DNA of 64,000 bases from Flavobacteriales bacterium (GTDB lineage Bacteria; Bacteroidota; Bacteroidia; Flavobacteriales; BACL11), in the NCBI GenBank assembly GCA_947502765.1, contig CANNBA010000006.1, positions 38,861 through 102,860 of the forward strand. The letters are read 5' to 3'. The notes under the pieces were generated by a model. The model saw only the letters and a program-made list of their open reading frames with translations. It was not told the origin of the DNA and ran no database searches. The position numbers and the translations under genes are program-made. Positions 34,610 through 37,155 of the stretch are shown in pieces (position 1 is the stretch's first letter; every line of letters starts with the position of its first letter).

Positions 34610-35614
34610 TTACTTCTTGTTCTTCTCCGCAGCTTTCTTATCTTCTTTTGCCTTCTTCTCCGCAGCTTTCTTATCTTCTTTTGCCTTCTTCTCCGCTGCT
34701 TTCTTATCTAAACTCTTCTGTTTCTCAATAGCTTTCCTAACATCAGATCGGTCATTACTTAATTTACCCTTTTTCTTCAAATCTTTTTCTACCAAAATTT
34801 GATTAGTTAATTCCTTCTCTGATGCCATAAGGATTAAAAGCTTTGAAGATTCGCTAATTTTAGATGTTTCTGGTTTAGCTGATTTTGCTTCTTCTAAATC
34901 AGTAGGCTTATTTACTGTAACTGAAGTTTGTATTGTAGCAGTTGATTCTTCCTTTTTAACTTTTGTTGCTTCTGCTTTTGCTTTTACTTCTGCTGCTGCC
35001 TTTTCTTCTTCTTTTGCTTTTGCTGCTGCCTTTGCTTCTGCTTTAGCTTCTGCTTTAGCTTCTGCTGCTGCTTTTGATTCTGCTTTTGCTACAGCTTTAT
35101 CTGATTCAGTTTTTTCTTTAGCTATTTCTACTAAATCAGTTTTTGAATCTGGTGCAATCAGAACTCTACAATCCTTACAATCAATATTCTTGTTATGCAT
35201 TAACATTGTATTCTCCCATTTATATGCTTCTTTTGCGCTCTGCTTGCCTGATTCAGTATAATATGAGGTTAATGTTCTATTAGAGTCAAAAATCATAAAT
35301 AATGAAGAAGGTTTATCGTAATACACCTCTCCCTGATTCATATTAGACTGATAATATATTTGAGCTACATTATTTCTAATATACTTATGCTTGTAACGAT
35401 ACTCTAAAATTAACTCTCCATTTTCTAAGTTCTGGTAAATATCAAATGGCTCAATTCCTAATTCTGAATTAACTTGAGCAGGAGTCATTCCTAACTCAAT
35501 ATTATATATCTTCTCAATAGTTGTAAAATATTCAATACTAATTTTATCTTGAGCAGATAAACTCATAGATAATAAAAGAATACCTGTAATTATAAAGTTT
35601 TTATTTTTTTTCAT
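34610..35614 (-). CDS. Secreted protein: BamE/SmpA-like small domain plus a long Lys/Ala/Glu low-complexity tail with an 11-aa tandem repeat
   Basis: 334 aa with signal peptide MKKNKNFIITGILLLSMSLSAQ and an ELGMTPAQVNSELG.P motif. The tail contains AKAEAKAEAKAAAKAKEEEK and a C-terminal (KKAKEDKKAAE)x2.7 repeat. No family recognised. Confidence 0.7.
   Translation of the reverse strand: MKKNKNFIITGILLLSMSLSAQDKISIEYFTTIEKIYNIELGMTPAQVNSELGIEPFDIYQNLENGELILEYRYKHKYIRNNVAQIYYQSNMNQGEVYYDKPSSLFMIFDSNRTLTSYYTESGKQSAKEAYKWENTMLMHNKNIDCKDCRVLIAPDSKTDLVEIAKEKTESDKAVAKAESKAAAEAKAEAKAEAKAAAKAKEEEKAAAEVKAKAEATKVKKEESTATIQTSVTVNKPTDLEEAKSAKPETSKISESSKLLILMASEKELTNQILVEKDLKKKGKLSNDRSDVRKAIEKQKSLDKKAAEKKAKEDKKAAEKKAKEDKKAAEKNKK
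34621..34709 (-). repeat. 33-bp tandem repeat, 2.7 copies (two perfect copies and a partial copy with one mismatch)
   Basis: tcttctccgcagctttcttatcttcttttgcct occurs at 34621-34653 and 34654-34686. A 23-nt partial copy at 34687-34709 carries one a>t change. The repeat encodes KKAKEDKKAAE units at the C-terminus of the 334-aa protein. Confidence 0.9.
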
Positions 35615-35620
35615 TTTTTC

Positions 35621-36211
35621 TTATTTATCGTTAATTTCAATAGTCCCTGAAGTTCCTACTTTTAACTCTATACCTATCTTACCTTTTAAGTCTAGAACGT
35701 CACATAAAGTACAATCTTTTGCTTCTTTATTATTATTTTCTTTTTCAATCTTTCTTTCCATTTTAATGCATGGCTCTCCTATACACAAAGTTGAAGAATA
35801 ATTAGAATTTACAACATAGTAGTACTTTTCTGTATCACAAGGACAGTATGAACAAGTATTATCTTCTTCAGTTGCTTTTGAGTTATAATTCCAAGCCAGT
35901 TTATCTGTACATCCTTTAATTACAACTGGTAACGATGGGTCAGGAATACATTGTGGCTCACAATTTCTTATTGGGTCATAGCTAGCATTTAAAATTTCTC
36001 CACACGGGCAATATTTACAAAGAGTTCTGTCATCAATATCAGCATCAGCATTGTAATTTTTTGCTTCTGAATCAATACATCCTGTTATTAATGGTTTTTC
36101 ACTATAGGAACATGTCCCTGATTCTTGTGTTGCCTGAGGATTGAAATTATTAGCCTTTCCCTTATGCCAAGATGGCCTTCCTTGATATTTTGGATCAGTT
36201 CCATCATCCAT
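35621..36211 (-). CDS. Cys-rich repeat protein, downstream segment (no signal peptide of its own; in frame with ORF 36392-36856)
   Basis: 196-aa track ORF with 20 Cys and repeats GCIDSEAKNYNADADIDDRTLCKYCPC and GCTDKLAWNYNSKATEEDNTCSYCPC. The frame stays open upstream for 60 more codons, to the TGA at 36392-36394. Confidence 0.6.
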   Translation of the reverse strand: MDDGTDPKYQGRPSWHKGKANNFNPQATQESGTCSYSEKPLITGCIDSEAKNYNADADIDDRTLCKYCPCGEILNASYDPIRNCEPQCIPDPSLPVVIKGCTDKLAWNYNSKATEEDNTCSYCPCDTEKYYYVVNSNYSSTLCIGEPCIKMERKIEKENNNKEAKDCTLCDVLDLKGKIGIELKVGTSGTIEINDK

Positions 36212-36391
36212 GCACCCAGTACAAACAAGATAATTCTCTTGAGTTTTACAAGATATTGAATTTTCTATGCAAAGAATGTCACGTGCTTTATATTTTGTAT
36301 TATCATTAATTATATTCTCAAGTTTACCATCTCTATAATATAGAAGAACTTGTTTATTTGCATCATCAGATGATTCAAACTTTGCTATTCC

Positions 36392-36856
36392 TCACTTTAA
36401 CGCAAATTCTGTATATATATCTTTTGCATTTATTTCTTGCATTAGTTTTCTATAATAGTGTTCATGAATTTCACAATTATCTTTTTGGTGATATATCTCA
36501 TATGGATAACTAGATAAAATAGCCCTCACCTGATCCTTGGTAAGTCCTTTTTGCAATTTAGCAAGAGCTGATACACTGACAAAAGTTTTTATAATTTTTT
36601 TATCATATGTACAGTTTCCGTTATCCTTTGTTGCACTTTTCTGATAGTTTATAGCTTCTTTATCCATACAGCCTAAGACTACAGGAGGGTATGTACAGCA
36701 AGAGTAATCTTTACCTCCTTTAACTTTCTTACAGTCATATTTAGCATCAGGATCATAATTAAGCCCTACATTATCCAAACAAGCAGGAGTTCCACAGCTA
36801 TAAAAGACACTCATAACTATAATTAAGCGAATTGAGGAATAAAATACTTTTTTCAT
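36392..36856 (-). CDS. Cys-rich lipoprotein, upstream segment (ends at an in-frame TGA inside a BamE-like domain)
   Basis: 154 aa with a lipoprotein signal (MSVFYSC), repeats ACLDNVGLNYDPDAKYDC and GCMDKEAINYQKSATKDNGNCTY, then GLTKDQVRAILSSYP, which is homologous to the domain of the 334-aa neighbour. Confidence 0.65.
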   Translation of the reverse strand: MKKVFYSSIRLIIVMSVFYSCGTPACLDNVGLNYDPDAKYDCKKVKGGKDYSCCTYPPVVLGCMDKEAINYQKSATKDNGNCTYDKKIIKTFVSVSALAKLQKGLTKDQVRAILSSYPYEIYHQKDNCEIHEHYYRKLMQEINAKDIYTEFALK

Positions 36857-36894
36857 ATTATTAATATTAATTATTTTTATTTTAGAGAAAAACT

Positions 36895-36996
36895 CTATTC
36901 AGGAGAATCTTCTTTAGCTGCTTTTTCTTTAGCTGCTTTTTCTTTATCTGCGATAGCTTGAGCTTTCAAATCAGATGTTAATCTTGTTTGTTCCAT
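36895..36996 (-). CDS. Unlisted 33-aa small ORF with a KEKAA repeat
   Basis: Manual translation gives MEQTRLTSDLKAQAIADKEKAAKEKAAKEDSPE. It has an A-rich leader (ACAAAAAAAAAGGGAAA ATG) and ends 38 nt upstream of the Cys-rich lipoprotein gene on the same strand. Confidence 0.3.
   Translation of the reverse strand: MEQTRLTSDLKAQAIADKEKAAKEKAAKEDSPE
36911..36951 (-). repeat. 15-bp tandem repeat, about 2.7 copies
   Basis: tctttagctgctttt occurs at 36911-36925 and 36926-36940, with a partial diverged copy at 36941-36951. The repeat encodes the KEKAA units. Confidence 0.85.
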
Positions 36997-37155
36997 TTTC
37001 CCTTTTTTTTTGTAGGTGCAATACATAAACTTAATTTAAAAAAGAGCCCATATTCCAAAAAAAAATTCTTATCTAGTTTTTATAGAAAAAATGTTACGGA
37101 TATAGATTTTAGAGTGTCTGTTATAAACAAATTTTTGTTAATTTCTTTGTTTGGT

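Follow-up and report, generated by a model that had tools for sequence, protein, structure and literature searches.

Ordinary nonsense pseudogenes and segregating loss-of-function alleles of bacteria are created by a one-base change to a stop codon, have intact close relatives and are restricted to particular strains. The locus described here, a Cys-rich lipoprotein gene split by an in-frame TGA on the minus strand of a 64,000-nt stretch of DNA (hereafter the window), shares all of these traits, and its downstream frame is still open because the nonsense event is recent. It departs from ordinary nonsense pseudogenes in two respects, namely that the same gene was hit twice independently within one wild population of 99.9% identity and that an apparent same-codon repair (TCA) co-occurs with the stops. 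Among cell-surface genes, a related situation has been described for phage resistance in Flavobacterium psychrophilum. That study (PMC9804748) reports resistance mutations in surface and gliding-motility genes, mostly nonsense or frameshift, as well as mutation reversal that restores function; the mutants were selected in the laboratory with known phages, and the genes concerned were known ones (gldK, gldM, sprA and others). Both cases involve Flavobacteriia and genes of the cell surface, whereas the present gene is uncharacterised and known from metagenome assemblies, and the resemblance to phage resistance is a lead only.

Two further groups of genes invite comparison. Bacterial selenoprotein genes such as fdhF likewise contain an in-frame UGA closely trailed by a hairpin; in contrast to these, the present locus has no Cys or Sec at this site in its orthologues, its hairpin is insignificant and unconserved, and its UGA is strain-specific. 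Lipoproteins of the BamE/SmpA_OmlA/OsmE/BLIP fold may resemble the predicted product in their alpha-alpha-beta-beta-beta layout and in being outer-membrane lipoproteins, and BamE gave the best PDB fold matches, obtained with a low-confidence model (pLDDT 63). In the present protein, however, the domain is embedded between Cys-rich repeats that BamE lacks, and its Pfam score remains below the cutoff. The resemblance implies no functional link to BAM.

One reading frame and its predicted product

Translation of positions 35621-36856 of the minus strand yielded 411 codons and the terminal stop, with TGA at codon 155 as the single internal stop (Table 1). The original prediction, made from the sequence of the window, had proposed that two ORFs in one frame (36392-36856, 154 aa, and 35621-36211, 196 aa) are connected by 60 stop-free codons, and that the TGA at 36392-36394 is the sole interruption of a 411-codon frame. 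Both ORFs were confirmed, the bridging codons were exact on retranslation, and the TGA proved to be the only interruption. In line with the same prediction, a copy of the Cys-rich repeat straddles the annotated ATG at 36211 (GC-x-D...C-x-Y at residues 214-251), and the stop lies within a domain in common with the neighbouring gene: residues 85-177 aligned with residues 23-122 of the adjacent 334-aa protein (25% identity, pairwise E = 2e-5). That the two ORFs are halves of one gene, as had been argued, is further borne out by full-length homologues and by 18 distant orthologues, each of which is one ORF. The claim that the downstream half lacks a signal peptide but has 20 Cys was correct in its first part only, since 19 Cys were counted in everything after the TGA, with 15 in the 196-aa ORF.

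After the TGA, the ATG at 36211 is the first start codon, 60 codons past the stop. This ATG encodes the M of a GCMD repeat motif and is replaced by T or K in several orthologues, and no leader sequence was seen in the 196-aa ORF. Given such a distant start, an unconserved Met and the missing leader of a Cys-rich product, the downstream piece is predicted to be unable to act as a gene of its own.

Table 1. Positions in the window of the interrupted gene, its parts and its neighbours.
Feature	Position	Strand	Basis or remark
Whole interrupted gene, 411 codons, predicted Cys-rich outer-membrane lipoprotein	35621..36856	minus	full-length 411-aa homologues at 98% identity
Predicted lipoprotein signal peptide, ending in putatively lipidated Cys21 (MKKVFYSSIRLIIVMSVFYSC)	36794..36856	minus	judged by eye
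Central BamE/SmpA_OmlA-like domain, about residues 85-185	36302..36604	minus	sub-threshold Pfam score, paralogy, AF2/Foldseek
Codon 140, CAA in the window; site of an independent CAA-to-TAA nonsense change in sister strains	36437..36439	minus	TAA in L016-L025
Codon 155, TGA; nonsense codon by G-to-T change from GGA (Gly)	36392..36394	minus	codons of relatives
AU-rich hairpin, starting 12 nt after the TGA	36357..36379	minus	judged a chance feature of coding sequence
Downstream 196-aa ORF, predicted untranslated remainder and no independent gene	35621..36211	minus	Met not conserved, no leader
Partner gene, 334 aa, with signal peptide, paralogous BamE-like domain and Lys/Glu/Ala-rich repeat tail	34610..35614	minus	pairwise paralogy
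33-aa ORF in place of the upstream OMP beta-barrel gene	36895..36996	minus	keeps only the KEKAAKEDSPE tail

A basic and hydrophobic leader ending in Cys was recognised by eye in the window gene and in all 18 orthologues, and this lipobox predicts that the gene product is a bacterial lipoprotein. Behind the leader come two Cys-rich repeats (GCxDxxAxNYNxxAxxDDGSCxY), which a central alpha/beta domain separates from three further repeats, and the protein closes with a conserved CPCDT...DCxLCD tail. As an extracellular module the repeat is very common: at E ≤0.001 it was detected in 13,477 proteins, some of which have dozens of copies. Searches of Pfam and NCBIfam assigned no family above threshold to the lipoprotein; the Pfam BamE profile (PF04355) scored 15 bits, below its cutoff of 23.2 bits, and covered only profile positions 2-25. 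When a low-confidence AF2 model (pLDDT 63) was compared with known structures by Foldseek, BamE, OsmE and BLIP ranked first, the top PDB match for this model being BamE 5wam (E = 4e-4, TM 0.51-0.57 relative to the target). In the same model, with its pLDDT of 63, both nonsense sites known from the population precede the last three predicted beta-strands of the central domain.

The sense codon of relatives and the nature of the TGA

A scan of one genome per GTDB species detected the family in 17 species, 16 of them labelled Flavobacteriales. In each of these, and in all 18 distant orthologues compared, the gene is one uninterrupted ORF (319-403 aa) whose leader ends in Cys. The nearest GTDB species was 48% identical, and the window's own species was not among the scan matches. 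At the position aligned to codon 155, the distant orthologues had AAT, ACN, GAY, GAR, AAA, TCG or AGT (N, T, D, S, K or E), always a sense codon; in 19 orthologues the residue at this site was G, S, N, T, D, K or E, and neither Cys nor TGA was observed. In the protein alignment, the stop column contained G, S, N, E, T or D, followed by an invariant Gly156.

Searching 5.8 billion proteins with the fused sequence identified as the closest homologue a 411-aa protein of 98% identity (P0001), followed by matches of 70%, 58%, 57%, 49% and lower. A TGA, too, would appear as Gly in a protein called under table 25; we therefore inspected the DNA encoding P0001, in the form of ten metagenome contigs (L001-L010) from several samples and three sources that were aligned codon by codon with the window. 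Codon 155 was GGA in all ten, with the gene being 99.1% identical (10-12 differences per 1236 nt). At the DNA level, the Gly of P0001 is therefore encoded by GGA and is not a TGA read under table 25.

The TGA allele itself was also recovered elsewhere. An exact look-up of the 154-aa product returned five other assemblies, comprising three ENA analyses and the Logan runs ERR3719140 and ERR5863116. Four of the five retrieved contigs contained the TGA (L011, L013-L015), while the fifth contig runs only as far as the first base of this codon. The TGA contigs were 99.9-100% identical to the window over 2.8-12.5 kb, and some differed from it at linked sites; they are therefore not copies of one sequence. 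A recent nonsense mutation had been ranked first among the explanations offered originally, and GGA in 99%-identical relatives together with a sense codon in 18 distant orthologues supports this choice. We conclude, with a probability of about 0.9, that the TGA is a genuine single G-to-T nonsense change of GGA, a predicted loss-of-function allele that segregates in a wild, uncultured, low-GC Flavobacteriales population.

How the stop would affect the product can be outlined from the predicted architecture. Translation would end at codon 155 and leave a 154-residue lipoprotein fragment, whose BamE-like domain would lack its last three beta-strands and which would presumably be misfolded. The cell would also go without the C-terminal 256 residues, which comprise three Cys-rich repeats as well as the conserved CPCDT...DCxLCD tail, since the next start lies 60 codons further on, is unconserved and has no signal peptide. 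The truncated product would probably be non-functional, and the allele would thus be a loss-of-function allele of a gene that is otherwise conserved across the order as part of a two-gene unit.

Indeed, a homologue of the 334-aa partner directly follows the lipoprotein gene in 17 of the 17 GTDB species examined, and lipoprotein and partner therefore form an old, conserved unit. In the window, the partner gene begins 6 nt past the normal stop of the lipoprotein gene, and polarity may lower its expression. On the upstream side, relatives have an OMP_b-brl gene of 253-258 aa; it was seen in L001-L004, whereas the window and L008 lack it. A connection between loss of this gene and the stop was considered and rejected, since the link is not tight: L008 is without the OMP gene, yet its lipoprotein gene is intact. 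As an aside on the neighbourhood, an apparent break in the neighbouring gene in contig L017 corresponds to a 100-N scaffold gap.

Stop and sense alleles within the population

A 139-aa product (P0018) of the same protein cluster was read on 16 contigs, including those of the NCBI MAGs GCA_947445705.1 and GCA_947443765.1. Ten retrieved contigs encoding it (L016-L025) had TAA at codon 140, and nine of the ten had GGA at codon 155; otherwise, they were identical to the window background (strains 99.8-100% identical). One of them, the MAG contig L022, carried both stops, TAA at codon 140 and TGA at codon 155. We read this as at least two independent knock-outs of the gene. A third allele encodes an intact 411-aa protein (P0022) on the window's exact background, with Ser at position 155, and was present in two contigs (L043 and L044) that have TCA at this codon and are otherwise identical to the window. 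A lone fresh pseudogene is hence too narrow a description of the TGA, which is a segregating allele with a sibling stop and an apparent revertant.

A single base change leads from TGA to TCA, whereas two are needed from GGA, and the rare linked SNPs 37047A and 37331A of the TCA contigs recur in TGA contigs alone. By parsimony, both observations point to a change from TGA to TCA, and the TCA allele is probably a same-codon repair of the stop. Exact look-up of the window background with Gly, Ala, Trp, Cys, Arg or Leu at position 155 returned no record; because no intact Gly155 allele was found on the window's exact background, we infer the CAA/GGA ancestor. The shortest history would start from this ancestor, with CAA at codon 140 and GGA at codon 155. 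One branch would have gained TAA at codon 140, and the other TGA at codon 155, after which some descendants of the latter would have changed TGA to TCA and thereby reopened the frame. The double stop of L022 could reflect recombination or continuing decay, and plain relaxed selection fits as well.

Within the clade of approximately 99.9% identity, the gene contains five variable sites, all of them nonsense or missense and none synonymous. Neither feoB (2.1 kb) nor sprT had variable sites in the same clade. Under full neutrality, 6.3% of point mutations in the lipoprotein gene would be nonsense. The neutral probability of at least two nonsense changes among four forward changes is about 0.02, calculated post hoc on five sites; that of one among five changes restoring sense at the stop codon is about 0.01, and that of two stops within 15 codons about 0.08, both again post hoc and from a small sample. 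Small and post hoc as they are, these values lead us to lean towards selection for inactivation, followed by restoration, over simple decay.

Neutral decay is less likely but nevertheless a real possibility; here the lineage would no longer need the gene, perhaps because the upstream OMP beta-barrel gene was lost, and disabling mutations would simply gather. The OMP gene is deleted in the window's clade, all five polymorphisms of the lipoprotein gene are non-synonymous or nonsense, L022 carries both stops, and the assembled contigs retrieved from the window's clade had broken alleles more often than intact ones (15 versus 2 contigs). The two broken alleles were reported as read on 7 and 16 contigs, and a scan of JGI metagenome contigs for the allele patterns gave a single match, an intact allele. 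Against decay, L008 keeps an intact lipoprotein gene without the OMP gene, the excess of nonsense changes is nominally above the neutral prediction (P about 0.02), and no frameshifts or further stops have accumulated downstream. Moreover, what separates the sole intact allele on this background from the stop is a single base of the stop codon itself (P about 0.01), suggesting that selection favoured restoration.

If these deviations from neutrality reflect selection, inactivation would have been favoured and not merely tolerated, and an agent that targets the cell surface, such as phage, is plausible. The uncharacterised gene pair, which encodes the Cys-rich, BamE-like lipoprotein and the partner paralogous to it, is a probable target of strong, changing selection. 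More specifically, and as a tentative and still doubtful proposal, point mutation may switch this conserved outer-membrane lipoprotein gene off (TAA at codon 140, TGA at codon 155) and on again (TGA-to-TCA pseudo-reversion) under fluctuating surface selection in wild, presumed brackish or marine, Flavobacteriales, a selection most plausibly exerted by phage that use the protein or its complex as a receptor. Candidate roles of the lipoprotein/partner unit in this uncultured lineage are those of phage receptor or surface antigen. Such on/off switching, if true, would be a natural counterpart, visible in metagenome assemblies, of the reversible resistance mutations of Flavobacterium in the laboratory. 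As a type of event this is ordinary; what makes it of some interest is the population pattern of two stops and a likely repair.

Adaptive gene fission, by which an N-terminal lipoprotein of 154 aa (or 139 aa) and a Cys-rich protein starting at ATG 36211 would both be useful, is very improbable. Both stops fall within 15 codons of each other (chance about 0.08) and leave the same N-terminal module and the 196-aa ORF. However, they cut the BamE-like fold in its middle and not between domains; the presumed start is embedded in a repeat motif and corresponds to T or K in several orthologues, the 196-aa product would have no signal peptide despite its 15 Cys, none of the 18 distant orthologues is split, and the same background also has an intact TCA allele. 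A diversity-generating retroelement or local hypermutation was likewise rejected as the source of the alleles, as the changes are C/T, G/A, G/T and G/C and thus not adenine-specific, and no second copy of 36341-36480 that could serve as template was present in the window.

The hairpin, recoding and sequence error

The hairpin noted in the original prediction was confirmed: its arms are 10 nt long with one mismatch, its loop is 3 nt, and it begins at the proposed distance from the UGA, but the suggested role as a SECIS or readthrough-stimulating element did not hold up, since the structure is weak and unconserved. Its minimum free energy corresponded to a z-score of -1.89, and equal folding was obtained in 10 of 200 shuffles. 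Equivalent hairpins occurred 59 times in the 64-kb window, or about 0.9 per kb, compared to about 29 in shuffled sequence. Furthermore, the hairpin sits in a 3-codon insertion that is absent from 17 of the 18 distant orthologues, and in the sole distant orthologue with the insertion (L045) the inner stem is broken without compensating changes. Rfam gave no match for the hairpin region or the whole window. We judge the hairpin to be a chance feature of coding sequence.

Programmed recoding, in which the UGA would be read as selenocysteine or by hairpin-aided readthrough so that the full-length protein is made, had been ranked third and is extremely improbable. It would draw on the hairpin 12 nt past the UGA, on a downstream frame that is still fully open, and on UGA being the leakiest stop codon. 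These points are outweighed by the strain specificity of the TGA, by a site that is never Cys but Gly in 99%-identical relatives and N, T, D, S, K or E in distant ones, and by a hairpin that is weak, common, confined to a lineage-specific 3-aa insertion and without its inner stem in L045. In addition, sister strains have TAA, no recoding codon, 15 codons upstream, and restoration of the ORF apparently needed the change from TGA to TCA. On these sequence data, a selenoprotein is rejected because the UGA never aligns with Cys or Sec, no conserved SECIS was found and Rfam gave no match; tRNA genes, including that for tRNA-Sec, were absent from the 64-kb window. Programmed readthrough is rejected because the stop is not conserved among orthologues and sister strains carry the upstream TAA instead. 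An alternative genetic code (tables 4 and 25) fails as well: TGA is a normal terminator that ends 9 of the 57 long ORFs in the window, the window contains no split gene other than this one, and the Gly of relatives is GGA.

A sequencing or assembly error, the explanation originally ranked second, by which the true base would be G (GGA) and the gene intact in this genome, is just as remote, for although the GGA of the closest intact relatives is only one base off and the source is probably a MAG, since all related records are MAG or metagenome contigs, the identical TGA recurs in five further assemblies from different read sets, including two Logan assemblies of unrelated accession series, some of these TGA assemblies differ from the window at other linked sites, and a G-to-T change at a non-homopolymer position is atypical for systematic error. 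In annotation, positions 35621-36856 should be entered as one disrupted gene instead of a pair of hypothetical proteins, and claims of a selenoprotein or of readthrough should be avoided. Low-level near-cognate readthrough of the UGA may make the allele leaky rather than null.

Divergence of the lipoprotein locus and its flanks

Comparing the clade of the window with the intact clade, i.e. the metagenome contigs with an unbroken Cys-rich lipoprotein gene (GGA at codon 155), showed that the lipoprotein gene (35621-36856) is 99.1% identical between the two, with 4 synonymous differences, while identity in the flanking genes was 96.1% for sprT and 96.6% for fumC, the latter with 28 synonymous differences. 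Several of the 411-aa lipoprotein variants moreover combined the diagnostic residues as mosaics. Because the lipoprotein gene is more alike than sprT and fumC, and because mosaic 411-aa variants occur, these sequence comparisons suggest that the lipoprotein locus has recently recombined or undergone a gene-specific sweep. In contig L022 (NCBI GCA_947445705.1, CANFDZ010000060.1), the lipoprotein gene combines a TAA at codon 140, the substitution E141K, and a TGA at codon 155 on one contig; this double stop arose by recombination or through a second hit, or else represents a mixed-strain consensus.

Features compared between relatives (window positions unless stated)
Feature	Position	Strand	Remark
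Partner gene	34610-35614	-	length differs between close relatives
33-aa ORF	36895-36996	-	inside 36857-37155, upstream of lipoprotein gene
Lipoprotein gene of L022	2417-3652 of that contig		

Variation around the lipoprotein gene

In relatives L001-L004, an OMP beta-barrel gene (Pfam OMP_b-brl) is placed between manC and the lipoprotein gene, and its product carries an (EKAAQ/K)n tail, whose repeat variation accounts for the lengths of 253, 256, and 258 aa. The window and L008, an intact-clade contig, have the 33-aa ORF alone at this site, and only a KEKAAKEDSPE tail is common to both proteins. An OMP gene is also found upstream in L026, the 48% orthologue. The OMP barrel upstream of the lipoprotein gene is a presence/absence polymorphism. 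The partner gene encodes products of 323, 334, 335, 344, and 348 aa in close relatives, as the copy number of its Lys/Glu/Ala-rich repeats (AEAK and AAEKKAKEDKK units) changes.

Further 5' of the operon, 6 variable sites fall within ~40 nt (37011-37047) in strains that are ~99.9% identical, and this stretch, which may be a variable promoter region, distinguished the haplotypes of contigs with the stop at codon 155 (TATGTATTGCA, TGA-type) from those with the stop at codon 140 (TATATAATGCA, TAA-type). The TGA-type contig L013 is 1 base shorter here, by an A9 run. A lipoprotein and partner gene pair of Flavobacteriales type was also present on L041 (CAYONT010000047.1), a contig from a MAG labelled 'uncultured Comamonadaceae bacterium', a label that likely reflects binning contamination or mislabelling.

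Cys repeat and window-wide features

Searching Pfam with the lipoprotein of the window returned no family above threshold. The ~25-residue Cys repeat GCxDxxAxNYNxxAxxDDGSCxY was found in 13,477 proteins at E ≤ 0.001 in the representative search (matches P0028-P0177), including giants of up to 6618 aa and with up to 60 matched stretches. Across the whole 64-kb window (1-64000), no tRNA genes were detected, nor did any Rfam family reach its gathering score, and the long ORFs end in TAA (39), TGA (9), or TAG (9).
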